Origin: a virus
IMG/VR virus record: IMGVR_UViG_3300037423_000600
Coordinates: 32,001-96,000 of that record
Length of the DNA: 64,000 nucleotides
Reading direction: 5' to 3' (one strand)
The notes below the pieces were generated by a model, which saw only the letters and a list, made by a program, of their open reading frames with translations, ran no database searches and had not been told where the DNA came from. The translations under genes and the position numbers were made by a program. Below, one piece after another: positions 673-61,333 of the stretch; the first letter of the stretch is position 1; every line of letters begins with the position of its first letter.

Positions 673-785
673 GATTACATAAGGAGGTATCCGGTACGAT
701 ACAAATTCTTTATCTCTAGTTGCCCTCCCGGGCCTATACTTATTACATGGGCCCGGGATGGCCCACCACACAGGAGGGATGAAGA

Positions 786-1280
786 ATGGTAATGAAATCG
801 ACACCTACGCCGCCCACGACAGGGCAGGTAATCCAGCGGGTTGAAAATCGGGTACTTCTTGAACAGGTTGCTTGGCAACTCAACCGCGTACCCAACGTCA
901 AATTCTTGTTGGTTTGGAACTTCAAATCGCCGGAGGACATCCGGACCTCGTTCACCAAGTATCGTCAGGGTGGCGGCCGGGAGGTTTTAGCGGTATTCAA
1001 ATCCGAGGTTTTTGAGGGGTATTCGGTCCTTGCGATTCAAGGCACCCCCAATTTCATGATGTTGCCTTCGCTTGGGTTCAATCCGGTGCGGCGGGATAAG
1101 GCCAACTGGAGGCCCCGCGTATGGCAATACTCGGACGAGGACGCGAAGGGATGGGGCGGCGGGCACGAAGGCCGGAACTACCGCAATTATGAAGTCGCGG
1201 ATAACTTCCGCTGGATGCCTTTCGACCAACTTATTGAGTTCATCCGGAAGGACTTCGAGATTTCGCTGATTTACAAGTGA
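786..1280 (+). CDS. hypothetical protein
   Basis: RBS AGGAGGG, upstream TATACT promoter, 164 aa ORF. Confidence 0.75.
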   Translation: MVMKSTPTPPTTGQVIQRVENRVLLEQVAWQLNRVPNVKFLLVWNFKSPEDIRTSFTKYRQGGGREVLAVFKSEVFEGYSVLAIQGTPNFMMLPSLGFNPVRRDKANWRPRVWQYSDEDAKGWGGGHEGRNYRNYEVADNFRWMPFDQLIEFIRKDFEISLIYK

Positions 1281-1340
1281 TTTTGCGGGCCCGGGGCGGC
1301 CCTACCGCCCCTCAAAATACATTCCTTGGAGGGAATCGAA

Positions 1341-1796
1341 ATGGAAAACGCTAAGACTATTGAAATCATCAACCAGCTTCGCCTCAACGTAGAAGCCCGT
1401 AAGCCACTGACTGTCACGCTGGCAAACGGGTTCTCGTTCCAAATCTCCGGCATCATCGGTACGATGGCCGACCTCGGCGGGCAGAAAGATTGCAACCTGA
1501 CCACCATCGTAGGCAACTTTAGTCCTACGGCATTGATGCAAGCCAATGACCAAATCATAGAGGCCGTACATAAGAGCCTTGAACAATTCGCTAAAACGAA
1601 TCCAGCGGCCGTCATCAGCGCAACGCTTGGCTTCATGCTCCGCAAGGCGGAGGAAGAAATGAGCCCTGAGGACCTGCTCTCCACACATCTTGCGTCTCAA
1701 ATGTCAACGAGCGGGAAGCCGAAAGGCATGGCCGACTTCGCCAAAATCGTCGCTCAAATGATGCAAGATGACGAGCCCGGCCGGAAGGCATACTAA
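1341..1796 (+). CDS. hypothetical protein
   Basis: RBS GGAGGG before ATG 1341; followed by hairpin 1803-1826. Confidence 0.75.
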   Translation: MENAKTIEIINQLRLNVEARKPLTVTLANGFSFQISGIIGTMADLGGQKDCNLTTIVGNFSPTALMQANDQIIEAVHKSLEQFAKTNPAAVISATLGFMLRKAEEEMSPEDLLSTHLASQMSTSGKPKGMADFAKIVAQMMQDDEPGRKAY

Positions 1797-1867
1797 TCTT
1801 GTGGGTGGGGATTTTGTCCCCACCCTTCCTAATCGCTAATCTTATACCAGCCTAAGGAGGCCGACCA

Positions 1868-2290
1868 ATGAACTACTCTAAAAGCAACGAGACTCCAGAT
1901 ATCCCAGACTTCAATCCCGCCCGGCGGGTTCACGTAACGACGAAATGCTTCCGAGCCAACCTAACTGACCCGAAGGAAACGCTGGAATCCTTTGATGCTT
2001 TCCTCGGTATGGGCATCGTTCGTACCAATGTGGGTGACCCGGCGGAGGGATTCGTAAGCTGTAATTCCCTTAACGGAGCCTTTAATACAAATGAAGTCGC
2101 TACGGCTTTAGGTTCCATGTTGGCCGCTGTAGTGTCGGGAACGAAGGATAAGCATAATCTCAACATCGAGCAGGTGTACGACTTGATTGGAGAAATGGCG
2201 GAACGCATCTTGTACACGGCGGCGGAGTATCACGGTATTGATATGGCGGCCATTGAGCGGGAAATTGAAGAGGAGGGTAATGCCCAATGA
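1868..2290 (+). CDS. hypothetical protein
   Basis: RBS AAGGAGG; ATGA overlap with next gene. Confidence 0.75.
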   Translation: MNYSKSNETPDIPDFNPARRVHVTTKCFRANLTDPKETLESFDAFLGMGIVRTNVGDPAEGFVSCNSLNGAFNTNEVATALGSMLAAVVSGTKDKHNLNIEQVYDLIGEMAERILYTAAEYHGIDMAAIEREIEEEGNAQ

Positions 2291-2691
2291 TTACAGTTAA
2301 CCCAAACGTATTGCTGGAAGTGGCGGAAGAGATTGAACAGGACGAGTATTACTCTGGTGCATCATGGTGGTTTCCAGAAAGACAGTGTGGCTGTGCCATG
2401 GTCCGGGTACTGTGCAAGACGACGGAGTTTGAAGCACGAGACAATACTTTCGGGTTTAGAGTCGAAGGATTTGCGGGCGGGCAATTTGTCATCGGCGGGG
2501 ATGTTGAACGTGCGGTAGCTTACGTAACAGGAGTACCCGATAAGATATGGGACAGCTTTAGAGGTTTCACCTTATACGCGGATAGATTCCAAACGGCAAG
2601 GGCTTTGAGAGAGATTGCCCAGACCGGGGAATTTACTTGGGACCCCAAAACCCGAGAAGAATATAATGCAAGATTTGAACTCAACTTGTGA
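2287..2691 (+). CDS. hypothetical protein, paralog 1 of a tandem pair (QCGCA motif)
   Basis: Similar to 2707..3120 (LLEVAxEIE...YSGAxWWxPxxQCGCA...DRFQTA/NRFETA). Confidence 0.8.
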   Translation: MITVNPNVLLEVAEEIEQDEYYSGASWWFPERQCGCAMVRVLCKTTEFEARDNTFGFRVEGFAGGQFVIGGDVERAVAYVTGVPDKIWDSFRGFTLYADRFQTARALREIAQTGEFTWDPKTREEYNARFELNL

Positions 2692-2706
2692 GGAGGGAAG
2701 CGAATA

Positions 2707-3120
2707 ATGATTATCGCGAATCGGGATATACTCTTAGAAGTGGCGGCGGAGATTGAAGCGTACGTGAACTACTCCGGAGCAGATTGGTGGTGTCCGGATA
2801 CCCAGTGTGGCTGTGCTATTGTCCGAACTCTCGGCAAGGTTACCGAATTAAAACAAAGTCCTCGGCATCAGCGTTCGGTGGTATTCGACATCAAAGATGA
2901 CGCGGGGCACCGCATAGTGGACCCCGTCTACGCTGTGGCTTTAGTGACAGGGCTATCCGATATAGTATGGAATGAGTTTTGTACCTTCTCCCTAGATGCA
3001 AATCGATTCGAGACGGCGGCGGCCCTGAGATATATACACCGTACCGGAGACTTTGATACCCACGAGTTCTGGAAAGAGTATAACCAGAACAATCCGGCGG
3101 GCGGGGAGGAGAACCAATGA
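2707..3120 (+). CDS. hypothetical protein, paralog 2 of a tandem pair
   Basis: RBS GAGGAGGG; homologous to 2287..2691. Confidence 0.8.
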   Translation: MIIANRDILLEVAAEIEAYVNYSGADWWCPDTQCGCAIVRTLGKVTELKQSPRHQRSVVFDIKDDAGHRIVDPVYAVALVTGLSDIVWNEFCTFSLDANRFETAAALRYIHRTGDFDTHEFWKEYNQNNPAGGEENQ

Positions 3121-3419
3121 GAACCTACTCCGTTATCCTTAAGAGTGGAGTCAGTCTACACGGACTGATTCCCTCCAACCGGACTAAATCTCTCGTCGGC
3201 TTGTGGATATGGGCCATGAAGAACCGCTACGGCGGGAAGTCCTCGGTGGTTTTAGACTTCCGGCAAACCAAGATCGCGGCGGAAGAGGTCGCTGTAATTA
3301 CCGAGGAAGGTATCGACGATACATACGACGAATTGGGCGGCGGGGACGATAACGAATGTCCCGATTGCGGTACCCGTACAGGACACCACCATAACGGATG
3401 CTCTCAGACCCTCGAGTAA
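3117..3419 (+). CDS. hypothetical protein with C-terminal CPDC..H..C zinc-finger-like motif
   Basis: ATGA overlap; CPDCGTRTGHHHNGC. Confidence 0.7.
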   Translation: MRTYSVILKSGVSLHGLIPSNRTKSLVGLWIWAMKNRYGGKSSVVLDFRQTKIAAEEVAVITEEGIDDTYDELGGGDDNECPDCGTRTGHHHNGCSQTLE

Positions 3420-3801
3420 CACGAAAGGTATTAAAAGATACCTTTTATTATATAAAAGCGGAAGTCTCCGGCTAAAACAGCTTGGGATTTCCGCTTTTTT
3501 CGTATCTACCCCAAAATAAGCCCCGAACTCGAAAAAAGCCTTATATATCAAGGGTTTTCGCCATTTCCACCGACCCACCCGGGCGGGCGGGAGGCGAAGC
3601 CGAAACCCTCAGTTCGGTTAACAGTAAGAAAGACACTGAATATAAGATAAACCCTTATAGAACAAGGACTTCCGCTCACCCACCCCGCCACACCTTTAGA
3701 CCTTTTAACTATTATAAGCATAGAAACCCTCCCTCTATGCATAGCGACACATGTATACAAGCCCCGATTTTTGTTCCCAACCGCCTCATTTGCTAATCAT
3801 T

Positions 3802-3936
3802 TTGCTAGCAAGGACCCAAGTTGCTAGCAGATTTGTTAACAAACGGGCTGTTAACATGCTTTAGTTGTTAACAAATGCCCTTGAAAGTTGTTAACAAGTC
3901 TGGTATTTTGTTAACAAGACACGAATTTGTTAACAA
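3802..3936. repeat. array of 8 palindromic boxes (TTGTTAACAA / TTGCTAGCAA type) overlapping a sigmaA-type promoter
   Basis: Boxes at 3802, 3821, 3833, 3848, 3865, 3888, 3908, 3927; TTGAAA-N17-TATTTT at 3881-3909. Confidence 0.85.
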
Positions 3937-3949
3937 AGGGGTTTTGTAT

Positions 3950-4288
3950 ATGAGCAAGAAACAGTTGGGTTCACGTATTCCGATGGAGTTATTTGATGAC
4001 TTGATGGCAAAGGCCGAGTCTTTGAACATGAGTCAGCAGGAAGCAACCGAGGCCGCCCTCCGGTTGTGGGTGTACGGAGAATTAGTTACGACTCCGATGA
4101 CCGAACAAGTCACGACTTCGCCTGCCGAGCCCGAGGAGGAAGAATATATTCTTCGCGGGGACCGGGCCAAGATGCGGAATCGGGACACCGAACAAGTTCA
4201 GATTCCGCACCCTGAATCTCTTCGAGGTAAGTATATAGCGGACAAGACCCGGAGGGGCCTGACCATAGATACGGTACTCAAAGATTAA
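3950..4288 (+). CDS. ribbon-helix-helix DNA-binding protein
   Basis: N-terminus KKQLGSRIPMELFDDLMAKAESLNMSQQEATEAALRLWV fits the CopG/Arc RHH pattern. Confidence 0.7.
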   Translation: MSKKQLGSRIPMELFDDLMAKAESLNMSQQEATEAALRLWVYGELVTTPMTEQVTTSPAEPEEEEYILRGDRAKMRNRDTEQVQIPHPESLRGKYIADKTRRGLTIDTVLKD

Positions 4289-4382
4289 AATTCCTTAACT
4301 CATGCACCCACCTGCGGGCCTATACTATAATTAGGTGGTCGGGCGGGAACCCCTACCACACTATCCCGTTGGAGGTTATGAT

Positions 4383-4961
4383 ATGAAAACCCATGATTGG
4401 AAAGCCCCGTTCGCCACGCCGGAACAAATCGCCGGAACTAAATTCGAGTCGGTGTATGACATCGCTACGGCCCGGAACGATGAATTGACCGGGTACATCC
4501 ACAAGCCTGTTCAGGTACACGCGACCAACGGTTCGCGGTCCATCCTCTTTGAAGCTTCCGCTACCCGGTATAACCTCATCGTGATTCCGAGCCCGGACGG
4601 GAACCTGCTGGTGATGGATGGCGAAGGACGTTGGATTCACCCCATCCGCCGACACCACACCTTTAGCCTCGACCAACTGGAAAACGCGGTGGCGGACCTG
4701 ATGGGGAATCCGAAAGTCAGCTATCTCGACGCAGTACATATTATGAATGCGGTCTACTTCCTCCTGACTTCGACCATCTGGGCCATCACGTTCAAGAACG
4801 TGGATTTCCAACTAGACGATGACGGCCATCCCTACTCGACGGTTGAGGTTCAGAAATATTGTTTGGCCGGAACGCATGAAGATGTCTACGAGGATATGCT
4901 GTCGGTATGCGAGGACGGCGGGCAGGGATACGAATATGAGGAAGTCCCTTTAGAATGGTAA
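4383..4961 (+). CDS. hypothetical protein
   Basis: Promoter GGGCCTATACT at ~4316, RBS GGAGG, terminator at 4963-4980. Confidence 0.75.
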   Translation: MKTHDWKAPFATPEQIAGTKFESVYDIATARNDELTGYIHKPVQVHATNGSRSILFEASATRYNLIVIPSPDGNLLVMDGEGRWIHPIRRHHTFSLDQLENAVADLMGNPKVSYLDAVHIMNAVYFLLTSTIWAITFKNVDFQLDDDGHPYSTVEVQKYCLAGTHEDVYEDMLSVCEDGGQGYEYEEVPLEW

Positions 4962-5179
4962 TCCCGCTCCGGCGGGTTTTGTCTCCAAGAAGGGGTGGGG
5001 TTGTATCAATCCTGCCCCTTCTTTTTGTCCCCTCAAATTTACGTCTTGTATCTGCCCTAGCCCACCGATTTTTTGTCTCCCCTGAGAGCGTCCTAGTATC
5101 AATTATATGTATCGTTCTCCGTCTCAACGAATAAAAATCGATTTAAACGGCTCTGAGAAGCCGAAAACGTGTTCGTATT

Positions 5180-5276
5180 AAGTACAGAATCCGCCCTTGT
5201 CCACTGGAGATGGACAGAATAAGTACAGAATCCGCCTTTTGTCCTTCTGGAGTGGACAGAACAAGTACAGAATCCG
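5180..5276. repeat. three direct repeats AAGTACAGAATCCG (period 41-42 bp) separated by TGTCC...GGACA hairpins
   Basis: Copies at 5180, 5221, 5263. Confidence 0.85.
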
Positions 5277-5373
5277 ATTTAAGTTCTTTTCCAGAGGACA
5301 ACACAAGAAGAACGAAGGGGTCTATAATAAAAGGACCGGGCGGGAACCCGGAAACAAATTGGAGGCGGTTCAG

Positions 5374-5628
5374 ATGAAAGAATTGATTACTAATTTTGAT
5401 GCAGGTTTGGTACATCCTTTGCGGGATGGGCGGGCTCCGGTTATTGACTTGGGTTCGCAGGGAACATGGAAGCTGACGAAGGTAGCGCATTTTCGATGCA
5501 CCCGATGCGGAAAAGTGTATCTCAACTGCCAAGATTATCGCCTGTATCTTTCCCCTTACGATGTCGTGGACGCGCCCTATCGGTCGGAGGGTCTTTGCAA
5601 CAAGTGTATTGATTGGTTGCATGATTGA
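5374..5628 (+). CDS. hypothetical zinc-finger protein (CxxC ... CxxC)
   Basis: RBS GGAGG; CTRC and CNKC motifs; terminator follows. Confidence 0.7.
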   Translation: MKELITNFDAGLVHPLRDGRAPVIDLGSQGTWKLTKVAHFRCTRCGKVYLNCQDYRLYLSPYDVVDAPYRSEGLCNKCIDWLHD

Positions 5629-5785
5629 GGGGTGGGGCTCCGGCCCCGCTTTTTATTTTCGGCGGGCGGGCACGAACACGTCACGATTCCGTTTCCTCAA
5701 ACAACAGGGTCTTAAGAATCCCTTTAGGCTTTATACTATAAATAGGCCCAAGGGAAAGGGCACTAAAACATTGGAGGTTTTACAT

Positions 5786-6022
5786 ATGAATTTGTCACTG
5801 GTGGTTCAACATTTGGTAGCACAAGAGAAGGCCAACGGCTCCGATATGGCGGCGGAGGCTTTAGGGAAATTGCTTGAGGAAACTTCGATTGTCTATTACG
5901 AGTACATGACCGAAGAAGAAATCGCCCAATACATTTTTGATGTCTACTTCGATGACCGCATCACTCATTTGCAGAATGGACTTAGCCGGACGGCGGGCGA
6001 GGTTACGATTGTCAGAAACTAA
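5786..6022 (+). CDS. hypothetical protein
   Basis: Promoter TATACT ~5732, RBS GGAGG, terminator 6028-6050. Confidence 0.75.
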   Translation: MNLSLVVQHLVAQEKANGSDMAAEALGKLLEETSIVYYEYMTEEEIAQYIFDVYFDDRITHLQNGLSRTAGEVTIVRN

Positions 6023-6181
6023 CGGCAGGCGGGGCTTCGGCTCCGCTTTTGCTTTACCCTAAACGGCAAGAGTAAGTAACGAACTCGCCCCAAGTTGTTT
6101 ACTCAAGTTGTCGGGCGGGGTCTATAATATAACTATAAGGGGTTCGGGACTCCTTAAACTTATTATTTTGGAGGAATGGAA

Positions 6182-6457
6182 ATGGATAACATGGAGGAAA
6201 CATTGGGATTGGTACTCACTTATTTTAAATCACTTCAATCTATCTTGGAATTGGCGGAAGGTAAAAAGGATTGGGAATTGGTCCAAACGGTTAGGGCTTC
6301 CTTGGAGGATATGGAGGTTGACTTGGGTTGGGATTACGGGGAATCGGATAAAACAGGCATCCAACAATGGCAAGGCGGAATGGACCGGGCGGAAGGGAAT
6401 TTCGGACATATTACGGAAATTCAAAACTTATCTCAAAAATTAAAGGCCGGGGAATAA
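6182..6457 (+). CDS. small acidic early protein; coding strand has only one lone G
   Basis: Promoter TATAAT ~6123, RBS GGAGG, terminator 6446-6476. Confidence 0.8.
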   Translation: MDNMEETLGLVLTYFKSLQSILELAEGKKDWELVQTVRASLEDMEVDLGWDYGESDKTGIQQWQGGMDRAEGNFGHITEIQNLSQKLKAGE

Positions 6458-6604
6458 TCCCGGTCTTTTTCTTTTCCTTCTATTATATAAGACACGACCT
6501 CGCCGGGCGGGGACAGGATTCTACAAATTACACAAGCCTTTAGGGCTATGGTATTATTTAAACATGGGCAGGGAACCCATAAACAACACATTGGAGGTAT
6601 TACG

Positions 6605-6877
6605 ATGCAGGGAACTATGGACAAATTGATTGAGGACCAACGCGAGTATGGAAAGGGTCTTATGACACGGGAGGAAAAATTGAGTCCCAATCCGATTCAA
6701 ACTAAATACAACGGGCGGAAGGTTTGGGTGGACGGCTACGGCTGGGGAACCATCAAAGGCGGATATCTTAACGACAGGCATCATATTTTCATCTTCTCGG
6801 CTTTTCATATCCACTTCGCTTCAGGTATCAAAACTACCATCTACGCCGCAAACATTCGGAAAATGGCTCGGGCTTAA
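6605..6877 (+). CDS. hypothetical protein
   Basis: Promoter TGGTATTAT ~6549, RBS GGAGG. Confidence 0.7.
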   Translation: MQGTMDKLIEDQREYGKGLMTREEKLSPNPIQTKYNGRKVWVDGYGWGTIKGGYLNDRHHIFIFSAFHIHFASGIKTTIYAANIRKMARA

Positions 6878-6904
6878 TGCCCGGGTCTTACTCGGAGGGG
6901 AACC

Positions 6905-7048
6905 ATGGGACGACCGGAATCCAGACCACAACCACAAGATACCGACTTTGATGAAATGGACGGGACAGGAATTAGACGTTGGGAACTCCTTCTCGGCATC
7001 ACGACTATCCTTATCGCCAGCTATACCTTAATCGCCCTCTATCCTTGA
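6905..7048 (+). CDS. small membrane protein (47 aa)
   Basis: RBS GGAGGGG; hydrophobic C-terminus LLLGITTILIASYTLIAL; terminator follows. Confidence 0.55.
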   Translation: MGRPESRPQPQDTDFDEMDGTGIRRWELLLGITTILIASYTLIALYP

Positions 7049-7394
7049 GGGCTTTTTTCTTACACCGAACCAAGTAATTTTCACGACACCTTTCCATAGA
7101 TTATACGCTCGGGGTATATTATAACTATCCCGGGAGGGCTTTACCAAAGGCTCTTATCGGGAACCTCCAATACATCGGCCCGGCAGGGATTCCCGACATT
7201 AACCGATTCGCGGTTACTGTACCCGCCGGGCCACAATTTTGTGCCAAATTCATAGACATCTAGTATCCCTCCCTTGCCCTCCGATTTTTGTATCCCCCAG
7301 AAGAAGCCCTAGTAGCTATACATGCCTCGTTCTCAAAAGATTTCACGAATGTAAAACTTTACAAGACTAAAGGATTCAAACCGTAAAACCTATA

Positions 7395-7424
7395 TTATAC
7401 CATAAAACAGGCCCTTCGGTCAAG
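7395..7424 (-). promoter_or_regulatory. leftward sigmaA-type promoter
   Basis: Minus strand reads TTGACC-N18-TATAAT with extended -10 TG. Confidence 0.65.
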
Positions 7425-7587
7425 GAGTCTAGGCAATAAATTTTTTCTTTCACGGACAGGCAAGGCAATAAAAAACATTATTCAAAAAGGACTTCTCAAA
7501 AACCCTTATAAGGCATATAATAGGTAATAGGTAAGGCGGGCCGGGCGGGAATCCACCCCTTACACTAACCTATTGGAGGGAATACAA

Positions 7588-8430
7588 ATGGCAAAAACAA
7601 ACGGCAAGGCAAACGGCGGGAAAAAGGTAACACCAAAAAAGGTAACACCAAAAAAGGTAACACTCCCGGAGGCTCTCAAATTACCGGAAACGGCGGGCCC
7701 GGAGGCAAACGGGGAATACTTCTACTTAACGGATACGGAGGCAAAAACGGCGGGCGGGACGGCTTTAGGCACACCGGAGGACTTGGCTAAGGCTATCCAA
7801 CAAACGGAGGAGGAAAAGGAAAAGGCTATCAAATTTATTTACGGGCCGGGCGGCCAAACATGGTCCATTCTTCCAATCCTCTTGGACCGGAAGGTTAATC
7901 CTTTCTTGGATACCCACTTCCCCATTACGGCCGGGCGGGTAACACAACAAACACTGGAGGAATGGAAAAAGGCTAACGGCACCATTACCATCATACCTAT
8001 CCAAGGCGGGGAATGGACATTTTACACGGTGGCAATACTTCCGGCCAAACAAACCACAATCAAACCTTGGGAATTAAAATGGGGACGGGAAACAGGCAAT
8101 TTCCTTCAATACACGGAATACAAGGAGGCGGAAAAAGGCATCATGGTAACACCCCAACAATACCTCATTACTAACATTACAACTAACCGGGGAAAGGCTA
8201 TCAATCAGGCTAAGGCATTGGGTAAGGTATTCAAATTGGATACCTCCACGGTGGAGGATAAGGCTAAGGTAACTTACACCATCACACCGGAAGGAAAAAT
8301 CCTACAGGCTAACAAAAATAACGGATTGGACAAAAAGGAATATAACTCTATCTCGGATATTATCGGACGGCAGGCAACCAAACATTATACATGGAATAAC
8401 TTGGTCAAGGCTTATACAGGCCGGGCTTAA
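7588..8430 (+). CDS. early protein of unknown function (280 aa); coding strand has no lone G
   Basis: Promoter TATAAT ~7516, RBS GGAGGG, KKVTP tandem repeat at N-terminus, terminator 8433-8470. Confidence 0.85.
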   Translation: MAKTNGKANGGKKVTPKKVTPKKVTLPEALKLPETAGPEANGEYFYLTDTEAKTAGGTALGTPEDLAKAIQQTEEEKEKAIKFIYGPGGQTWSILPILLDRKVNPFLDTHFPITAGRVTQQTLEEWKKANGTITIIPIQGGEWTFYTVAILPAKQTTIKPWELKWGRETGNFLQYTEYKEAEKGIMVTPQQYLITNITTNRGKAINQAKALGKVFKLDTSTVEDKAKVTYTITPEGKILQANKNNGLDKKEYNSISDIIGRQATKHYTWNNLVKAYTGRA

Positions 8431-8432
8431 TC

Positions 8433-8470
8433 CAAAAAAAGGAAATTCTCTTCGGGGAATTTCCTTTTTT
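8433..8470 (+). terminator. intrinsic terminator, possibly bidirectional
   Basis: AAAAAAGGAAATTCTC-TTCG-GGGAATTTCCTTTTTT. Confidence 0.8.
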
Positions 8471-8667
8471 CTATTTCCACCCACCCACCTTCAAATTTTT
8501 GGAAATTCTACCCGTGCAAGTATATACTCATATGCGAAAAGGATATTCACGAAACCCTCGCTTCTGACACTTCCAGACCTTGTAAAACAATGGACGAGCT
8601 GGGGCGGAGGGGCTATAATTATAAGTGATATAACTCTTATATGAGGCGCAAGGGGAGGGCAACCACC

Positions 8668-10431
8668 ATGACTATAGAACTGGATGAATCAAAACGTAAG
8701 AAGCCCAAACGAGTATCTACCAAGCTCAAGCATAACAAAAGGGAACTGCGAGAGAAGCAGGGAACCACTCAAGATGAGGGAACTGCTTTAGACCAAAGGG
8801 AACGTGACTTAAATGAGATAGCTGACGAGAGGGCTAGGGAACTGGCGGAATCCGTAAAGGCCAAGACGACCTCTTTAGCCAAACGGGATGAACAGCTATC
8901 CGATTTGGTCGAGAAGATACTGTTGTACTGTGAAACCCAAGCGGACACGAAGTTACACGAATACCAAAAGGTATTTGCGCGGCGCGTCATCGAGTGTTTG
9001 GTGACGAATAGCGGGGATGAACTCACGGCCCTATTTTCTCGTCAGTCGGGTAAGACGGAGACGCTCGGGGTGGTGATTCCGGGGTGTATGGTATTACTGC
9101 CTCTGCTGGCGAAGATGATTCCGGATATGTACGAATTGAAGATGTATGCTAAAGGGTTCTGGGTGGGGATTTTTGCTCCTTCTAATGAGCAGGCGTATAC
9201 GGCGTTTACGCGGGTGCGGGAGAAAATACGGCACGGGAATGCGAAGGCGATTATGAATGACCCGGAGATTGATACGGATTTTGAGAATGAGAAAGGGAAC
9301 CCGATGCTGTTGACGAATGGGTCGTTGTGTCGGATGCAGTCGGCGGCGAAGCAATCCCAGATTGAGTCGAAGTCCTATCACATGGTACTGATTGACGAAT
9401 GTCAGGATGTCGATAATACGAAAATCAAGAAATCGATTCACCCGATGTTGGCGGCGTATAACGGACTCATTATTAAAATCGGGACCTCGAATACGAAGAA
9501 GTCGGACTTCTATGATGCGATACGGCGGAATATCCGGCAGGAGCAGAATTACGGGGCGAAGCAGAATCACTTCCAATATGACTATAAGACGGTGCAGAAA
9601 TACAATCCAAAATATAAGGCTTACATAGAGAAAGAGATTACGCGGCTTGGGTTTGATTCGGACGAATTTCGGATGGCGTATCGGCTCCACTTCATTCTGG
9701 ACCGGGGGATGTTTATTACGCAGGAGGATTTTGATGATATCCTAGTCTCTCCGGTGTTGAAGCACAAGACCGAGGAAATGTCGATGCCGTGTGCGGTCGG
9801 GATTGACGTAGCGAAGAGTGGGGACTCAACGGTGGTGACGGTTTTAGGGGTCGATTGGAGCAACAAGTATAAGAATGAGGAAACCGGGGAAGAAATCCCG
9901 ATGAAGTATGTGCTGAACTGGCTGGAGTTACAGGATGAGAAGCACGAGGCGCAGTTCTGGCAAATTGTGGATTTCCTTAAAAACTATAACGTCCATACGA
10001 TCTTCGTAGATTCGACGGGGATGGGGGACCCGGTGGCGGACCGTTTTGCGCATTACTATTCCGGTCAGTGTCACGTCGAAGGGTACCAGTTTACCCGGCC
10101 GTCGAAATCGACCATGTGGAAGTCGTTGAAACAGGAGATTGACGGGAACCGCCTAAAGGTGCCGGGCCATCCCCGGGCGCAACGGTTACGGCCCTTTATG
10201 AAATTCCGGTCGCAAATGCTCGACTTGGAGAAGGATTACGTGGGGCAATACATGGTCTGTCAGCATCCGGATGTCAAAGGGGCACACGATGACTATTGCG
10301 ACTCTTTAGGGCTGGCGAATTTGGCGGCGATGTCGAACTTTATGCCGGAAGTCGAGGAACATGACAGTCCATTTTATCCGCATAGCCGGACCTCGGTGGA
10401 GGAAAAACTGTTCGGGCGACGGAGGGCGTAG
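8668..10431 (+). CDS. terL: terminase large subunit
   Basis: Walker A SRQSGKT, Walker B VLIDE, nuclease motifs GIDVA, VDSTGMG and HDDYCDS. Confidence 0.93.
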   Translation: MTIELDESKRKKPKRVSTKLKHNKRELREKQGTTQDEGTALDQRERDLNEIADERARELAESVKAKTTSLAKRDEQLSDLVEKILLYCETQADTKLHEYQKVFARRVIECLVTNSGDELTALFSRQSGKTETLGVVIPGCMVLLPLLAKMIPDMYELKMYAKGFWVGIFAPSNEQAYTAFTRVREKIRHGNAKAIMNDPEIDTDFENEKGNPMLLTNGSLCRMQSAAKQSQIESKSYHMVLIDECQDVDNTKIKKSIHPMLAAYNGLIIKIGTSNTKKSDFYDAIRRNIRQEQNYGAKQNHFQYDYKTVQKYNPKYKAYIEKEITRLGFDSDEFRMAYRLHFILDRGMFITQEDFDDILVSPVLKHKTEEMSMPCAVGIDVAKSGDSTVVTVLGVDWSNKYKNEETGEEIPMKYVLNWLELQDEKHEAQFWQIVDFLKNYNVHTIFVDSTGMGDPVADRFAHYYSGQCHVEGYQFTRPSKSTMWKSLKQEIDGNRLKVPGHPRAQRLRPFMKFRSQMLDLEKDYVGQYMVCQHPDVKGAHDDYCDSLGLANLAAMSNFMPEVEEHDSPFYPHSRTSVEEKLFGRRRA

Positions 10432-10434
10432 GCT

Positions 10435-39200: not shown

Positions 39201-39333
39201 TACCAACCATCTGCTTCAACCAAATATCGGCGGCGTATGGAAAACACCTAAAGGCAATTACGTCAATGTCGGCGGTACGTGGCGGCGGGTAGTTGCGGCG
39301 TGGACCAAAGTCAACGGTACTTGGAAAAAATAA
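36280..39333 (+). CDS. large Ig-like/FN3 repeat tail or receptor-binding protein
   Basis: Repeated D.TAP ... D.AGN Ig-like units; duplicated EYNLNGGAWTTYTGTVT. Confidence 0.8.
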   Translation: MPSNTLYPTRNARVSKPEFGTSASIMYTANSSGGRLRMGQSYDDEGGSWSFGYVVLDFDWSSIPSNAVIDSVNLYHVSDGIFLSGLTFFASRYTGTWPALTSNVSQACTFGKDETYKTNFTTGSSQSYFGSPIPAALAQQIRSSGGWLMMYRDDKANQWEYEIYPYDNASYKPYLQVDWHYPNTAPNAPSVSMSNGAYWQTTLQPTINWTFSDPDGNPQGGYSVELINGAYSASLWSSGAIADANARSYTLPAGVITGDGTFWLRMRVYDSNGAWNQSNGNSPDPAFGNVSFGVDRTAPTTSNYNVGVTPANIASGGTKNVSIDIGDGLSGAYLSDAYYCKPDGTWVQCLSLATSSGATRTIPVPITTEGTYLVDFYVRDNAGNNAASYPVRLSFIVDRTAPAMNSVTGQIKTNSSATQRFTVNTSDANGIQRVDAYILNFAGTAWSGPFAATNAGSGNWYYDFNPAYEAGNGTHTVRFWSYDPAGNGNFIDSSLVYDTTAPSAPTITPSRAAGSWGATDVTFTLGGSTDSLTGVNRYEYNLNGGAWTTYTGTVTLSTTGATTVNARAVDNVGNVSGTTSATFYIDKVAPTAPTINRSNTNWSNVNVTFTITNGTDANSGVARSEYNLNGGAWTTYTGTVTVSAAGQTTVNARTVDNAGNVSSTTTTTIYIDKVAPTATNQTFTVNTNSTSARLWIYGVADDYSGVNRIEVWRTPPGGAEAYLGNMTKNGATNDYYIDVTLSTQGTYAYRLVPFDNAGNYINAGTANVTYDTTAPTIGSVDAYGYTSATTGTRRVFANNVADSGSGINTVNASYIRPGDGGRTTLTAVQSGSNWYVDVPLSAVQGEWNVQFQAVDRAGNTSSVSTAYFFVDNVAPADGNEQYSITESSVTVTWTGFSDTAPSSGYSRTEFYFQKADGTPIDIDSNGSTESLLTFTDNRTSYTVNNLVPGTQYRCTVVLTDKSGNSNAWSYDTFYTNHLLQPNIGGVWKTPKGNYVNVGGTWRRVVAAWTKVNGTWKK

Positions 39334-39348
39334 AAGGAGTGATTCTCT

Positions 39349-40305
39349 ATGGAAAGAAAGTACCTTGTTAAAAAGGACCCTCATGACCATCGGGACTTTG
39401 TATACGCGGCTCCGCGCCTTAAGGCTCTGCCGCCTTATGTTGACCTCCGGGGATTAATGTCCCCGGTTTTCAACCAGTTGAATATTGGGGCGTGTCTCCC
39501 CTCTTCGATTGCTCGGGGCCTTAGGGAACACTACATGATTGCCAACGGCCAGAAGTACGTTCCTCTTGCTACCATGTATCTTTACTACAAAATTCGTGAA
39601 TTGGAAGGTACAATTAACGAGGATGCAGGTGGATACATCCGGGATGGCATGAAGGCGGCGACCACCATTGGCATCTGTCCGGAAGCCCTTTGGCCGTATA
39701 TAACCAGCAAGTTCACACAAAAACCTCCGGCGGAGGCAGACGCAGCGGCGGTAGCGTACAAGCTGGATTCCTACTACCGGGTGTATGGCCTGACGAACAT
39801 CAAGACGGTCTTGGCGGAAGGAAAGCCAGTAGTTATGGGCATCGCCATTTACACATCGTTCGAGTCGCAAGCGGTGGCAGATACCGGGGTTGTACCTCTT
39901 CCGGATAAGGCTAAAGAGGAGTTCCTTGGCGGCCACGCTGTTTTAGCTGTCGGCTACGACGATACCAAGAAGCGGCTGATTGTCCGGAACTCGTGGGGCC
40001 CGGAATGGGGAGACAAAGGGTACTTCTACCTCTCCTACGATTTTGTCGAGGACTCCAACCTCGTGTGGGATACATGGGTCGGGGAGTATACGGCTCCTGT
40101 GCCAACGAATCCGTGGGATGGTATCACCGTGTCGGAGGCCATTGATTACCTTACGGGGCTCTCCTTCTCGGACGGACAACCTGTATCCGACTCCCCGGAC
40201 TTTTGGAAGAACCTTGTGGCGAAATACCCGGAGGAGGGCGACTCGGACTTCCGTTACTTCGGCCTCTTCCTCCGTAAGCTGGCGGCGAAAATGCAGGGCA
40301 AATAA
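39349..40305 (+). CDS. papain-family (C1A) cysteine peptidase
   Basis: Q..IGAC, GGHAV.AVGY, VRNSWG..WG..GYF. Confidence 0.9.
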   Translation: MERKYLVKKDPHDHRDFVYAAPRLKALPPYVDLRGLMSPVFNQLNIGACLPSSIARGLREHYMIANGQKYVPLATMYLYYKIRELEGTINEDAGGYIRDGMKAATTIGICPEALWPYITSKFTQKPPAEADAAAVAYKLDSYYRVYGLTNIKTVLAEGKPVVMGIAIYTSFESQAVADTGVVPLPDKAKEEFLGGHAVLAVGYDDTKKRLIVRNSWGPEWGDKGYFYLSYDFVEDSNLVWDTWVGEYTAPVPTNPWDGITVSEAIDYLTGLSFSDGQPVSDSPDFWKNLVAKYPEEGDSDFRYFGLFLRKLAAKMQGK

Positions 40306-42708: not shown

Positions 42709-42738
42709 TTGACAAGCCTATCAAATACGTAATATAAT
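42709..42738 (+). promoter_or_regulatory. sigmaA promoter
   Basis: TTGACA-N18-TATAAT. Confidence 0.75.
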
Positions 42739-45829: not shown

Positions 45830-46009
45830 ATGCAATTCCATATCTTTTCGGAGTACCAAAGTATTCATGATGAGGTATATACGTTTGACTCCAAGTATTA
45901 TGAGGAATTAAGGAGAGAAGCGGCTAAACTTGGGGCCAAATCCCGCCCGTCCGGAAACAATTTCCAAGGGCTCCGGTTGGTCGTTGACAATACGAAGAAA
46001 AAGCAGTAA
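45830..46009 (+). CDS. hypothetical protein
   Basis: RBS GGGAGGG; ends in LRLVVDN motif. Confidence 0.55.
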   Translation: MQFHIFSEYQSIHDEVYTFDSKYYEELRREAAKLGAKSRPSGNNFQGLRLVVDNTKKKQ

Positions 46010-50035: not shown

Positions 50036-50215
50036 ACCTCACTCGTTACCCCGGGTGGGGTATTCTTTTTATATCAGGGCCGGGAGGCCGGAAAGGAGGT
50101 CCCCATGAAGCTTTCACAGGATAATGCTTCTTTCTTGCTATAGGTATCCTGAGTGGGTGTTTATTTATGGTTCTCTTTTACAAAGTGCTTTAGGCCCATC
50201 AAAAAGCACTTATCA

Positions 50216-50252
50216 TCGACCCTTGTCCCGGGTTATACTACTTATATCAGGT
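50216..50252 (+). promoter_or_regulatory. phage middle-promoter motif (other copies near 50043, 53184, 56503, 60972)
   Basis: TCG-N15-TATA(A/C)T-ACTTATATCAGG. Confidence 0.75.
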
Positions 50253-50269
50253 GGAAGGGAGGCGGCAAG

Positions 50270-50446
50270 GTGGATATCGAAGCTGTTAAAACAAAAGTAA
50301 TCGCTGATTTAAAGCAGGCTATAGCTACAAGGGATGAAGAAGTCGCGCATCACATAGCGGATTCGGCTTTATGTGAACTGCTAGAGGCTTTAGGCTATGG
50401 CGATGTCGTTAAGCTTTTTGATGAAGTCGATAAATGGTACGCCTAA
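50270..50446 (+). CDS. hypothetical protein
   Basis: RBS GGGAGG; E.AH..AD..LC..L..LGY...V..F....KWYA. Confidence 0.7.
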   Translation: MDIEAVKTKVIADLKQAIATRDEEVAHHIADSALCELLEALGYGDVVKLFDEVDKWYA

Positions 50447-50964: not shown

Positions 50965-50965
50965 G

Positions 50966-52801: not shown

Positions 52802-52965
52802 TGCGGCCGAAGATTAAAGGCAATCACTGTAAATGGACATTTCTCTGGATGGAAGTGAAGTTCCCCAAGTCCTCCCCGAACCTCCGGGACTTGGGGCGTT
52901 CCCTTGAATATTACCGTAGCTGGATAGGAGTTCAAAAATTACGTGAATTGAGAGGTAGAAAATGA

Positions 52966-53151: not shown

Positions 53152-53275
53152 AAGTTTTTCATCCCACCCCTTCCCGGGTTTACTCGATACCCGGAAGGGG
53201 TTATAATACTTATAACAGGTCAAACGGTCCCGGCCGGGCGGCCAGTTACATAAAATCAAAGGAGAAGTGATAAGA

Positions 53276-54355: not shown

Positions 54356-54417
54356 TAAGAAGCGGGCGGGGAGGGGTGTAAGTCCTCTCCCCGTACATAC
54401 ATTTAAGGAGGCTATCC

Positions 54418-54828: not shown

Positions 54829-54841
54829 AGGAGACATCGCT

Positions 54842-56460: not shown

Positions 56461-56557
56461 AGCGTCAAAAGGAGGGCCAAAAGCCTTCCTTTTCTTCTTA
56501 TATCGTCTCCCCGCAGGTGGTATAATACTTATATCAGGTAAAGGAGGGCGGGACCCT

Positions 56558-57013
56558 ATGGGCGATATGGCCGATTATTATTTGGAATTGGATATGAAGA
56601 AGCGAGTCGAGGATAATCCCTTCGAGACACTCGTCGGCTTTAGCAATATCCTTAATCACGATTATTGGGTAACCAAGGAGGGCGTGAAGAAGTATCCGAA
56701 GAAAAACATGACGTATTCCCATATCCTCAACGTCCAACGGATGCTTAAGCAGGAGTCATTCCTGTCCAATCATCAAAAGGCCAACGTGCTGTTTTATCTT
56801 ATGGTTCCGGGGCCGAGCGGGGAGTTTGCCCAAGATTGCTTCGATATGGAGTTCAATCATGCGCTGGAAGTATCGAACTACCCCTTGGATAGGTACTTCG
56901 CGGAAATCGTAGAACCGTCAACGCTATGGCAGGCTTTAGAGGCCGGGAAAGCCAAGCACCAAAAGAAACAGGCCAAGGTGGAACCGAATTTCCCTTGGAT
57001 TGTATCGAACTAA
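56558..57013 (+). CDS. hypothetical protein
   Basis: MGDMADYY N-terminus; promoter and RBS upstream. Confidence 0.75.
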   Translation: MGDMADYYLELDMKKRVEDNPFETLVGFSNILNHDYWVTKEGVKKYPKKNMTYSHILNVQRMLKQESFLSNHQKANVLFYLMVPGPSGEFAQDCFDMEFNHALEVSNYPLDRYFAEIVEPSTLWQALEAGKAKHQKKQAKVEPNFPWIVSN

Positions 57014-57027
57014 AGGAGGCAAGTCAG

Positions 57028-58157: not shown

Positions 58158-58555
58158 ATCGGCCTTTAGCAGTAGGAGACAAAATCTTCGTTAAGCCTGT
58201 AGGAAACAACGCCCGCGGAGGAAATTCAAAAGTTGAAGAATGGGAAGTGAAAGTTGTCGGCCGTAAGTATATTACGGCCGGACGGCCGGAGGAAACCGTT
58301 AGGTGGAGCGTTAAATTCTACCGCTGGGATGCTCCCGACTTTCCACTTCGTCAAGTAACCGAGTATTCACCTGACTGGCAAGTTTATTACGACCTTCAGC
58401 ACATCATGGATGAGCAGGAATACGCTACACTCCTCCGCGAAATTCGTTCCGCCATTTCCCCGGGCGGCGGGTACAGTAAACCTAGCCTTACTCTCAAGCA
58501 ACTTCGGTGCATAAAGCACATTATTGATGTAGGCGACAGCTTCTATCTTTCATAA
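58154..58555 (+). CDS. hypothetical beta-barrel protein
   Basis: L.VGD...V..VGRKYIT motif. Confidence 0.7.
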   Translation: MNRPLAVGDKIFVKPVGNNARGGNSKVEEWEVKVVGRKYITAGRPEETVRWSVKFYRWDAPDFPLRQVTEYSPDWQVYYDLQHIMDEQEYATLLREIRSAISPGGGYSKPSLTLKQLRCIKHIIDVGDSFYLS

Positions 58556-58654
58556 CCATTATTTGAGGGAGGACAAAAAGTTCTCCCTCGTTTTCTTTTA
58601 TGGTATATAATAGGTATAGGAAGGGAGGGAACCCAACCGGAGGAGGAACCGCCT

Positions 58655-58918
58655 ATGGCCTATAATCCATACGCAACTATCAGCACCAAGCATATCGACA
58701 AATTGTTGGACCAGAAAACGAAAATGGCGGCACAGCTTGAGAAGGAAATTGCTATGCTCAAGGAACGGAAAGCAGAAATCGAACGCTTCAAGGCATCCGG
58801 CGGAACCCGGGATACCGAGTTTTCCGTCAGTATAGGCGAGAGGTTAGGTGAATTATTGCATGTTCGAGGGCTTCGCACCACGGCCAAACATGACGGGCTT
58901 TACGTCCATCCCGAATGA
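58655..58918 (+). CDS. hypothetical coiled-coil protein
   Basis: RBS GGAGGAGG. Confidence 0.65.
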   Translation: MAYNPYATISTKHIDKLLDQKTKMAAQLEKEIAMLKERKAEIERFKASGGTRDTEFSVSIGERLGELLHVRGLRTTAKHDGLYVHPE

Positions 58919-59741
58919 ATTTTTCCGGGCGGATGTGTTGTCGGAACTAAAGGAGGCCGAGCTTAAAATCCTGCTGGCTACCTTTAGAAAAACCTACGGG
59001 TGGATTGACCGTATCGAAAACGGTCAGGTGGTTTACAAGCTGGAAGATGACATTTCCTATTCGCAGTACCGGGAAATGACGGGGTTATCCGATGCGTCAA
59101 TAGCCTCCGCCCTTAAGAAGCTGATTCAAAAGGGCTACATGACGCGGGTTAAGCTTGGAAATCAGAGCGGCCAATCATCCCGGTATAAAATACGTATAAA
59201 GGGAGAATCACCGGATGAATGGAACGAATTGGACTCCGACGAAAGTACAGGAATTAGCGAAACGATTGGGAGTGAACATCCAACGGTATCAGGCGGAGAT
59301 GCTTTCACTCCTGATGAACTCTTCGGAAGAAAAAAGACGGGGGCTCCGGAGCCCCGTAAAGGTAAAGGCTCCTACACCGCAAGAATCGCTTCTGTATGGA
59401 AAGATTCTTGCCGCCGCAAAGGATTCGGGTCGTACGCCCAAGCGTTAACCAACCGGGACCTCAAGCATGTGAAGGATTTGGTGGCGGCGTACGACGAAGA
59501 AACGGTTCTTAAGGCGACGGAATTTTTCGTAATGAATTTCAAGGCTATCGCAGAAAACCTTGGTATTACGTCCGGCGAACCAACCCTTCCCGTCTTGTGG
59601 GGCTTTAGGGCCTCCATCTTCCCAATGGCTAAAACGGGAGTCATCGGCTTTCAGCGTCCGGCGGCCACCAAGAATAAACAGACCCGCGAGTTCAACGAGA
59701 ATAAATTTGGCGGAGGAGGCGGAGACTTTTGGCAGACATAA
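58848..59741 (+). CDS. phage replication initiator (winged HTH, lambda O-like N-terminus)
   Basis: FT.IPNE, E.K.L....RKTYGW, ISYSQ..EMTGLS...I..ALK.L...GY; precedes DnaC-like gene. Confidence 0.8.
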   Translation: MNYCMFEGFAPRPNMTGFTSIPNEFFRADVLSELKEAELKILLATFRKTYGWIDRIENGQVVYKLEDDISYSQYREMTGLSDASIASALKKLIQKGYMTRVKLGNQSGQSSRYKIRIKGESPDEWNELDSDESTGISETIGSEHPTVSGGDAFTPDELFGRKKTGAPEPRKGKGSYTARIASVWKDSCRRKGFGSYAQALTNRDLKHVKDLVAAYDEETVLKATEFFVMNFKAIAENLGITSGEPTLPVLWGFRASIFPMAKTGVIGFQRPAATKNKQTREFNENKFGGGGGDFWQT

Positions 59742-60439
59742 TCCTCGACCCCCGAACCCTTCTCAAGTGCGGCATCATGGAGGAATACCACGACAAGGAC
59801 TTCAACGATTACTACGGGTATATCGGGAAGTGGCGTGAGTTGGTTTCGATGATTAACGCATGGAATGAGGCCCACCCGAACGATGCAATTTATCTGGACT
59901 ACGAGGCGGCGGCGGAAATCCTCAAGAAGGTTGCACAGTACGCGGCGGAAATTGAACGGGCGAAGCGGAAGGGCCTCTCCATTATCCTCGCGGGGAGTAA
60001 CGGCACCGGGAAAACTTTACTCGCGGTGTCCATTCTAAAGCGGGCGATTCGGAAAGGATTCACCGCGCAGATGGCCTCTTTAGGCGGCATCATTCAAATG
60101 TATACGGATGGCTGGAGTGACTCGCATAAGCGGGTCCTCTTTGATGAGCGGGTGAAAAACGTAGACTTCCTGATGATTGATGATGTCGGGAAGGAATATC
60201 AGGCCAAGAACTCGGACCTCACGGAGGTTATGTTCGATAACCTGATTCGGTACCGGGTGGGGCGGCGGAAGCCCTTCATATTGACCACCAACACTTCGGC
60301 CTCGGATATGAAGAACCGTTACGGCAATTCCCTGATGTCTCTTCTCTCCGGGAAGTGCCTCGCGGTGCAGATGGTCGGAGAGGATTACCGCAAGGCGATT
60401 CAAAATAAAAATCTATGGGATGAATTATCCCGCGACTAA
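59729..60439 (+). CDS. DnaC/IstB-like helicase loader ATPase
   Basis: GSNGTGKT, L.IDDVGKE, R....P.I.TTN, G.DYR. Confidence 0.88.
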   Translation: MADIILDPRTLLKCGIMEEYHDKDFNDYYGYIGKWRELVSMINAWNEAHPNDAIYLDYEAAAEILKKVAQYAAEIERAKRKGLSIILAGSNGTGKTLLAVSILKRAIRKGFTAQMASLGGIIQMYTDGWSDSHKRVLFDERVKNVDFLMIDDVGKEYQAKNSDLTEVMFDNLIRYRVGRRKPFILTTNTSASDMKNRYGNSLMSLLSGKCLAVQMVGEDYRKAIQNKNLWDELSRD

Positions 60440-60457
60440 TAAAGGAGACTTGAACCC

Positions 60458-60928
60458 ATGAGACAAACGGATAATGAGCAAGTCATGAACGCAGGGAAAA
60501 CCTATATTTTGATTATCGACCGTCAAGGTTCTGTCCTTCCGGCCGGGGCGGAACGGTTTACCTTCAAGCATTTCAGCCACCCTTCGGATGTCATACCCTA
60601 TGTGGCCGATATGAGTCGAGGAGGAGGTAAGGTACACAAAATCGTCCAGATGGACGCGATGGCGACCGACCCGGTGCCTATGGAAATCCGCTTCGAGGGC
60701 GGAAAGCTGGTTCTAGTCGAAGTTCCGGTGGTCGGGGAATACAGACGTAAGCTTGAGGAGTACGAGAGTCGTGAACTCATCATCGAACTCTCCCGCCGTA
60801 AATCGGTTGACCTATTTGAACTCGGGATGCCCGGCCTTTCGGATGACTCTGAAATGGTTATCGCGGTTCCGGGCGGGGAGAAGAAGATTGAAGGCCCCGC
60901 CAATGTACTCGTCTGTTATCAATATTAG
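60458..60928 (+). CDS. hypothetical protein
   Basis: RBS AAGGAG. Confidence 0.7.
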   Translation: MRQTDNEQVMNAGKTYILIIDRQGSVLPAGAERFTFKHFSHPSDVIPYVADMSRGGGKVHKIVQMDAMATDPVPMEIRFEGGKLVLVEVPVVGEYRRKLEEYESRELIIELSRRKSVDLFELGMPGLSDDSEMVIAVPGGEKKIEGPANVLVCYQY

Positions 60929-61024
60929 GAAAGGGGGATTCGTCCTCCTTTTCTTTTATTTTGGACTACTATCGTTCTTCGATTCCGGTTATAATACTTA
61001 TATCAGGTCAAAGGAGGGGTTACG

Positions 61025-61333
61025 GTGGCAATCAAAAGTAAGAAGTGTGTCGCCTCGGCTTTAGGTATCTATGGAAAGACAGTTAACGCTACTTTGGAAG
61101 TTACCTCGAACCGTACAACAGTAGACTTTCCCGGCAAGCTCATTCCTCAAGTATCGGATACTCCGGTGAAGGAAGAAATTGATGGGCTTCGGATTTTCCA
61201 GCCCGCGATGCACTATGAAGATAGTTCTTTCCCCGAGCGAGAGGTATCTCTATCTAAAGCAGAGGCTCGGGAATTGTATGAGTTCTTGCATAATATCTAC
61301 GCCAAGGAGGATAACCAAGATGCCGCGAAATAA
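61025..61333 (+). CDS. hypothetical protein
   Basis: Promoter motif and RBS AAGGAGG. Confidence 0.7.
   Translation: MAIKSKKCVASALGIYGKTVNATLEVTSNRTTVDFPGKLIPQVSDTPVKEEIDGLRIFQPAMHYEDSSFPEREVSLSKAEARELYEFLHNIYAKEDNQDAAK

Follow-up and report, generated by a model that had tools for sequence, protein, structure and literature searches.

Isolated-G-free leaders and transcription units in an uncultured phage with a putative GGGA-loop hairpin module

The window and its isolated-G-free leaders

The stretch of DNA analysed here (the window, 64,000 nt) comprises bases 32001-96000 of the 105,101-bp virus record IMGVR_UViG_3300037423_000600 (G000), which has direct repeats at its termini. Our subjects are the promoter-leader segments of this phage that lack isolated G, where an isolated G is defined as HGH, i.e. 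a G with non-G on both sides, and two transcription units from which isolated G is absent or nearly absent throughout (GG-only units). All credible genes of the window are on the + strand; the gene caller used was crude, with 80% coverage. The large terminase gene occupies 8668-10431, with the late structural block next downstream. The first-pass annotation of this DNA had listed eight leader segments as free of isolated G. They are given below, together with further leaders that it did not list; stem-loops are predicted and SD denotes the Shine-Dalgarno sequence.

723-780, + strand: leader segment 1; GGGCC, -10 TATACT (735), stem-loop 748-765 with loop CGGGAU (-10.9 kcal/mol), CA-rich linker, GGAGGG, ATG at 786; 0/16 G isolated
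4315-4367, + strand: additional cassette leader; -10 at 4326, stem-loop at about 4341-4353 (GGG-CGGGAA-CCC, -14.8 kcal/mol), linker, TTGGAGG; 53-nt gap
5315-5372, + strand: additional cassette leader; -10 at 5323, stem-loop 5336-5351 (CCGGG-CGGGAA-CCCGG), linker, TTGGAGG; 58-nt gap
5717-5787, + strand: leader segment 2; CTTTAGG, -10 TATACT (5732), stem-loop 5743-5765 (GCCC-AAGGGAAA-GGGC), A-rich linker, TTGGAGG; 0/14 G isolated
6537-6603, + strand: leader segment 3; CTTTAGGG, TGG-TATTAT extended -10 (6552), stem-loop 6564-6580 (AUGGG-CAGGGAA-CCCAU), CA-rich linker, TTGGAGG; 0/15 G isolated
50046-50106, + strand: leader segment 4; GGGTGGGG, TATTCT, stem-loop 50078-50089 (GGCC-GGGA-GGCC), AAAGGAGG; 0/21 G isolated
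50226-50278, + strand: leader segment 5; GGT-TATA(A/C)T-ACTTATATCAGGT family, short leader without a hairpin
53187-53244, + strand: additional leader; member of the ACTTATA(T/A)CAGGT promoter family; 58-nt gap
56514-56563, + strand: leader segment 6; TGG-TATAAT-ACTTATATCAGGT, stem-loop 56545-56557 (GGG-CGGGA-CCC) overlapping the SD
58591-58650, + strand: leader segment 7; TATAAT-AGGTA, stem-loop 58623-58634 (GGG-AGGGAA-CCC), GGAGGAGG
60982-61037, + strand: leader segment 8; GGT-TATAAT-ACTTATATCAGGT-CAAAGGAGGGG, short leader without a hairpin

The listed segments proved to be exactly as described: each contains 14-21 G and none that is isolated, giving 0 among 133 G in 475 nt (28% G). All eight are maximal gaps, with an isolated G at both borders, and are therefore unusable as their own statistical test. 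Across the window there are 31 gaps of at least 50 nt, compared with 26 under a geometric model and 16 +/- 4 in 100 third-order Markov simulations. Start-proximal non-coding zones, 4.5% of the window by length, contain ten of the 31, against 2.1 by random placement (maximum 7 in 2000 trials); the roughly 5-fold enrichment of gaps just upstream of start codons is thus real and not due to chance. The effect is partly generic, as the longest gaps of two controls also take the form of leaders ending at SD-ATG: 4/4 of the longest (61-77 nt) in the phage L005, which has 60% terminase identity, and 3/7 of the longest in Bacillus phage BCD7.

A pooled test used the region -60 to -1 of the 65 gene starts preceded by a spacer no shorter than 70 nt. 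The isolated-G fraction of these leaders was 0.318, rising to 0.381 with the SD masked, compared with 0.401 in coding and 0.373 in other non-coding DNA. A second test, by class, took starts with a -10 box (at most one mismatch) 20-90 nt upstream and counted single G-runs among all G-runs with the SD masked; the coding baseline for single G-runs in this genome is 0.605.

Small-gene cassette (window about 4000-8560): single G-runs 4/27, P 1.4e-6 versus baseline
Right arm (ACTTATATCAGGT family): single G-runs 9/30, P 7e-4
Left arm: single G-runs 29/49, not significant
Late region: single G-runs 26/42, not significant
Relative L003: single G-runs 20/54, P 2e-4
Control BCD7 (closest cultured relative by terminase, 41%): single G-runs 137/170, not significant
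Control L005: single G-runs 28/45, not significant

Within the window, depletion is thus confined to two promoter families, those of the small-gene cassette and of ACTTATATCAGGT. The suggestion that the leaders follow a genome-wide rule does not hold, as leaders of the left arm and of the late region, and all leaders taken together, look normal once the SD is masked. The narrower expectation that early leaders would differ from late ones is borne out for the cassette and right-arm families.

A shared leader layout with a GGGA-loop hairpin

The depleted leaders have a common order of elements: GGG or TGG, the -10 box, often AGG, a hairpin, a G-free CA-rich linker of 10-20 nt, and (T)TGGAGG. The GGG element of the cassette module lies 1-2 nt upstream of the -10, and there is no consensus -35. 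The hairpin has a stem of 4-6 bp, one arm being a G-run and the other a C-run, and a GGGA(A) loop of the GNRA type. It is found in six of the eight listed segments; the other two (50226 and 60982) are the short leaders. In 20 leaders from three phages the hairpins predicted by RNAfold have energies of -4.4 to -14.8 kcal/mol and start 8-10 nt after the -10. In individual folds the stems differ with pairing retained (CCGGG/CCCGG, AUGGG/CCCAU, GUGGG/CCCAC and GCCC/GGGC) and the GGGA loop is constant. The same layout is seen in the relatives L003 (47% GC) and L004 (39% GC). A loose motif pattern matched the genome 50 times on the + strand and 7 times on the - strand, coding matches included; the corresponding ratios were 24:0 in L003 and 14:0 in L004, and there were no matches on the + strand of L005. 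An Rfam scan of 3400-8700 returned only sub-threshold chance matches. Judged by these sequence comparisons, this is a clade-specific, conserved promoter-leader module with a putative GGGA-loop hairpin that is absent from Rfam.

Boxes with no or one mismatch to the -10 consensus TATAAT are present at 735, 4326, 5323, 5732, 6123, 6552, 7516, 50234, 53202, 56521, 58606 and 60990. The promoters at 50226 and 60982 belong to a family GGT-TATAAT-ACTTATATCAGGT-N-AAAGGAGG, with further copies at 53202 and 56521 and two more beyond the window. The best -35 matches to TTGACA at 16-18 nt in the listed promoters carry 2-4 mismatches, and the GGG element or TGG beside the -10 may substitute for the -35 hexamer. 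TTGACA itself occurs in a promoter-like setting only at 42709, where it is followed by N18-TATAAT, and at 45984. It is therefore correct that the listed promoters lack TTGACA and that 42709 and 45984 have it. The further idea, that the hexamer is avoided on account of its own isolated G, is unsupported because in all eight listed promoters an isolated G lies inside the -35/-10 spacer or at its edge, 8-17 nt before the -10. Two + strand promoters serve for comparison.

8614-8667, + strand: late (large terminase) promoter and leader, internal control; 4/9 leader G isolated
42709-42738, + strand: consensus sigma-A type promoter, TTGACA-N18-TATAAT

Isolated G also returns promptly at the other end of the ordinary leaders, either between SD and ATG or shortly ahead of the SD (781/784, 4368, 5373 and 6604; likewise in L003 and L004). 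The first isolated G comes after the SD in 9/11 ordinary leaders and 3-8 nt before it in 2/11. The genes behind these leaders have a normal isolated-G fraction (0.45-0.51), and the terminators of ordinary cassette genes hold isolated G. The purged strand is the non-template strand; isolated G is abundant on the template strand.

Two other words deserve mention. CTTTAGG(G) occurs 3-12 nt upstream of the -10 at 5725 and 6540 in the window, at genome position 27035, at 6895 and 7730 in L003 and at 1385 in L004, and may be the actual upstream promoter element of the cassette promoters. GGGCGG is present 142 times on the + strand and 38 times on the - strand, mostly in coding DNA, and for that reason it was rejected as a leader-specific site on its own.

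Transcription units purged of isolated G

Two units of the cassette carry the purge through their genes.

6111-6490, + strand: GG-only unit 2; promoter 6123, 91-amino acid (aa) acidic gene 6182-6457, terminator
7428-8513, + strand: GG-only unit 1; promoter 7516, leader stem-loop 7543-7558, 280-aa gene 7588-8430, terminator 8441-8470

Unit 1 runs for 1086 nt without any isolated G, while isolated C is normal (114/193). Unit 2 has a single isolated G, at 6320, which separates gaps of 209 and 170 nt (1/80 G in the gene), and isolated C is again normal. Its promoter has isolated G at -13 and -16 (6110 and 6107), and the counterparts of that promoter in L003 and L004 have one isolated G each, at about -16 to -19. 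Both units are headed by the same hairpin leader module as ordinary cassette genes, so the proposed tie between the GG-only genes and the listed leaders is upheld in the form of a common leader module. The purge of the whole unit is a separate, additional property.

Three other lineages (L003, L004 and L016) have homologues of the 280-aa gene immediately before the terminase. In L003 a gap of 1262 nt spans the homologue and includes a second small open reading frame (ORF); in L004 the gap is 1234 nt, and a further gap of 502 nt covers an acidic 129-aa gene; the roughly 720 nt of the homologue region in L016 contain two isolated G. The rule at the DNA level is thus kept in four lineages at 38-50% GC. 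In three phages the purge extends from leader to terminator, taking in the 5' untranslated regions (UTRs), the intercistronic region and the 3' UTRs. For the 280-aa unit it begins 55-88 nt upstream of the -10; over the three phages 12 G-runs and not one single G are found in this upstream stretch. The acidic-gene unit of L003 (6889-7308) has as its only isolated G seven in the context TGC, a context that accounts for about 8% of all isolated G genome-wide; in this unit the agent that selects against isolated G seems to spare TGC. Other tolerated exceptions are the TGA at 6320 and CGA and AGA in L016.

The rule leaves an imprint on the protein. A profile search for the 280-aa family gave 21 cluster representatives, of which 16 have no Cys, Met always before V/A/D/E/G, and no [FIYHNDC][VADE] dipeptide against 10-15 expected; the imprint fails in 5/21. 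A codon-level or translational cause was rejected because the UTRs are also free of isolated G, and a sequencing artefact was rejected on the grounds that the frames are intact and conserved. From the sequences we conclude that the GG-only units are, in all likelihood, under strong, old and strand-specific selection.

What the proteins do was sought by several routes. Pfam and PHROGs gave no match for the 280-aa, 91-aa or 90-aa proteins. Two AlphaFold models of the 280-aa protein were made, the better with a predicted local distance difference test (pLDDT) score of 74 and a core above 90; with this protein, Foldseek found nothing at E <= 0.001 in PDB and BFVD, and the best Z in VIA-align wide was 3.0, with no recognisable fold. 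The protein adjoins the large terminase and was considered as a small terminase, which has no fold or family support. Scans of viral sequences for the family found L003, L004 and L016 only, and alignment A1 retrieved no relative from a metagenome scan. A separate observation concerns P0018 (1146 aa), in which 15 separate stretches match the C-terminal part (210-281) of the 280-aa profile without the GG-only imprint.

The DNA around the 280-aa unit has further features. No ORF is found for about 300 nt in the region 7108-7430, which includes the following:

7108-7194, + strand: promoter at 7115, then 87 nt without isolated G; no ORF

The promoter-like sequence at 7115 is TATATTATAAC, and the putative RNA from it, which may be a small RNA, includes GGGAACCUCC with CCUCC, an anti-SD-like word. 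In the ORF-free region upstream of the unit, the window (7345-7375) and L004 (3050-3200) have GAATGTAAAACTTTAC-N-AGACTAAAGGA in common, and GAATGTCAACCGTT occurs three times in L004 and once, degenerate, in L003 (8465-8480). Between the GG-only unit and the terminase promoter all four lineages carry the word CGAAACC(C/A)TCGCTTCT(G/T), at 8541-8560 in the window, 9876-9893 in L003, about 4515-4570 in L004 and about 963-1005 in L016, where its version is CACTAGCTTCTATC, in two copies. It could be a late-promoter or packaging element.

Deazaguanine genes and candidate explanations

A run of genes some 6-15 kb upstream of the window start was checked by Pfam and PHROGs. It encodes a QueE-like radical S-adenosylmethionine protein, FolE, a staphylococcal-nuclease homologue, a phosphoheptose-isomerase-like protein, QueC, a cytidylyltransferase, a PfkB kinase, a GT9 glycosyltransferase and a deaminase. 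The QueE-like, FolE and QueC genes (Pfam) are those of the preQ0 pathway, and they stand beside a gene for a 327-aa DpdA-like protein that matches PHROG 887 (queuine tRNA-ribosyltransferase) at E 3.4e-46 and, by tblastn, is 31% identical to DpdA of BCD7 and 29% to that of CAjan; a search of the genome with Pfam TGT gave no match. Because the run combines preQ0 genes with a DpdA-like protein, a DNA modification of the 7-deazaguanine type is very probable in this phage. The phosphoheptose-isomerase-like, cytidylyltransferase, PfkB kinase and GT9 heptosyltransferase-like genes lie between QueC and the DpdA-like gene (6909-11686 of L008, which is genome 13001-32000), and this gene content suggests that the deazaguanine is decorated with a sugar, possibly heptosylated. 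The L003 genome has FolE, a 92% identical DpdA-like protein and GG-only genes together, and its contig was the sole one returned by a search with the DpdA-like protein. In the L005 phage (G001; L014/L015) the DpdA-like homologue appears as two pieces of 43% and 54% identity, about 900 nt apart and close to the contig end, and may be split or interrupted.

Two phages with related modification genes served for comparison. BCD7 (L017/L018) has a TGT/FolE/QueC/QueE/QueD cluster; on its coding strand the longest isolated-G-free gap is 75 nt, there is no purged gene, and no relative of the 280-aa family lies beside the terminase. For CAjan and iggy the motifs of the phage DpdA enzymes have been described: GA and GGC in CAjan (PMC7544227) and GA in iggy (PMC10484667). 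No CAjan gene is devoid of the known motifs; GA is missing for at most 159 nt and TC for at most 241 nt. The latter stretch, at 39243-39483 on the + strand of L020, corresponds to the GA-free coding strand of gp50 and is the only motif gap well beyond expectation there (mean spacing 18.5 nt). Like CAjan and iggy, the phage of the window has a DpdA-like gene, the preQ0 pathway and a sequence feature that depends on the context of G. The known motifs of those two are not isolated G; a motif-free gene is absent from CAjan, and a GG-only gene from BCD7.

What accounts for the leaders, in our judgement with the scales tipped slightly its way, is that the absence of isolated G is mainly a by-product of conserved RNA-level promoter-leader modules, since the elements of the modules are all either G-runs or G-free. 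There would be two such modules, the cassette type with its hairpin and the short GGT-TATAAT-ACTTATATCAGGT-N-AAAGGAGG promoter-leader. The hairpin, near the predicted 5' end of the mRNA, would act as a 5'-end stabiliser and/or a protein-binding site, and the unstructured G-free linker and strong SD would drive translation. Several points weigh against this account. The richness of leaders in G-runs is specific to the clade with GG-only genes (G000 and L003), as judged by the lack of any excess in the SD-masked controls BCD7 and L005, and this would fit a shared selective cause for leaders and genes; GGGA-only loops and stems made of a G-run and a C-run are what an isolated-G rule would itself yield; the promoter copies share motifs and so are not independent observations; stem covariation is seen in individual folds only, the ungapped MAFFT alignment A4 misaligning the longer loops; and the 5' position of the hairpin rests on predicted, not mapped, transcription starts. 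In a reading that we hold possible but would not bet on, leader depletion and GG-only units are two grades of one selection against isolated G on the RNA-like strand. Some agent in infected cells would read or damage isolated G, in mRNA or in exposed non-template DNA; two units would have been rewritten to full immunity, protein included, and other early mRNAs purged only in their ribosome-free 5' part. A specific form of selection, to which we assign a somewhat lower chance still, is that an endoribonuclease or RNA-modifying enzyme acts on isolated G in single-stranded RNA, GG-only mRNAs being fully immune, and the purge of ordinary cassette mRNAs being limited to that portion of the 5' UTR which ribosomes leave uncovered. 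The purge is specific to the RNA-like strand, with isolated C normal; in the GG-only units of three phages it matches the unit boundaries from leader to terminator; isolated G is tolerated upstream of the -10 and returns within the 30S footprint in 11/11 ordinary leaders. On the other side, the exceptions (TGA at 6320, CGA and AGA in L016, seven TGC in L003) fit no single specificity, and the purge upstream of the -10 in the 280-aa unit is unexplained by RNA alone unless an upstream start site exists. We know of no nuclease that cuts every HGH yet spares GG. Bacillus subtilis RNase Y offers a partial parallel in its preference for cutting after G and before A, with U at -2/-3, but the preference is weak, with 63% of sites lacking GA (bioRxiv 10.1101/2023.03.12.532304).

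The first-pass annotation had instead favoured a block at the level of DNA: an enzyme of the DpdA type would hypermodify isolated G, and modified incoming DNA would block initiation or escape, so that early and middle leaders and the GG-only units avoid the motif. The genome does encode a QueE-like protein, FolE, QueC, a DpdA-like transglycosylase, a nucleoside diphosphate (NDP)-heptose-like pathway and a GT9 transferase, L003 combines FolE and its 92% identical DpdA-like protein with GG-only genes, and phage DpdA enzymes are motif-specific (PMC7544227, PMC10484667). The pattern in the leaders nevertheless speaks against such a block, and we consider it improbable. Isolated G of the same strand sits in all eight promoter spacers and at -13/-16 of GG-only unit 2; it is back at the SD-ATG spacer, with normal genes behind the leaders; most of the G-runs belong to a conserved stem-loop; and only the non-template strand is purged. 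RNA polymerase stalls at lesions in the template strand. The comparison phages point the same way: BCD7 has its deazaguanine cluster yet no purged gene, and CAjan is without any gene free of its known motifs. Least credible of all, and with only the slimmest of chances in our estimate, is that composition or chance suffices, with AT-rich -10 boxes and GGAGG alone producing leader gaps of 50-70 nt. Overall the gap count (31) lies close to the 26 of the geometric model, masking the SD leaves the pooled leaders normal, and the longest gaps of L005 and BCD7 are leaders too. However, the eight segments are G-rich (28% G) rather than G-poor, and with the SD masked the cassette (4/27, P 1.4e-6) and L003 (20/54, P 2e-4) stand apart from normal controls, so that for the cassette the idea is largely refuted.

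The conserved-module account invites comparison with known leader elements. The 5' stabilisers of Gram-positive mRNAs are 5'-terminal stem-loops or polypurine elements, for example the aprE and ermC leaders and the early-RNA stabiliser of phage SP82. As in these, a stable hairpin lies a few nt from the predicted 5' end and is followed by a strong SD, in phage early genes and with a putatively Bacillus-like host; the difference is that the GGGA(A) loop is constant here across diverged phages. Conservation of the loop over such distances suggests that it is bound by a specific partner and does more than protect the end. The boxB hairpins of lambda-type nut sites, which are bound by N antiterminators, likewise have a short GC stem and a GNRA-like purine loop and lie early in the transcripts of small, terminator-ended units. 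Neither a boxA-like element nor an N-like arginine-rich protein was identified here, however, and the hairpin lies right at the 5' end, in many copies directly before an SD. In two-site targets of the CsrA type, one GGA is in a hairpin loop and another in the SD; the leaders resemble these in having a loop GGA 20-30 nt upstream of a GGAGG SD and differ in that the loop is GGGA, not ANGGA. CsrA (PF02599) was not found in the phage and its relatives (G000-G003). The GG-only units, as distinct from the ordinary leaders, call to mind mRNAs that lack the motif of an mRNA interferase, ACA-less for MazF and GCU-less for MqsR. In both, a short motif is missing from the RNA-like strand over whole transcripts and the protein is adapted; here, unlike in the MazF and MqsR cases, the purged motif is any G without a G neighbour, i.e. 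nine trinucleotides.

For the biology of this phage group, the supposed genome-wide rule and the promoter-level block are unsafe to build on. The controls sharpen the puzzle of whole transcription units without isolated G. Should their cause be a nuclease or a modification enzyme with specificity for isolated G, this would be a new activity, and the GG-only genes would be its natural resistant reporters. The leader module, for its part, is a candidate cis-regulatory element of early genes in an uncultured group of deazaguanine phages.

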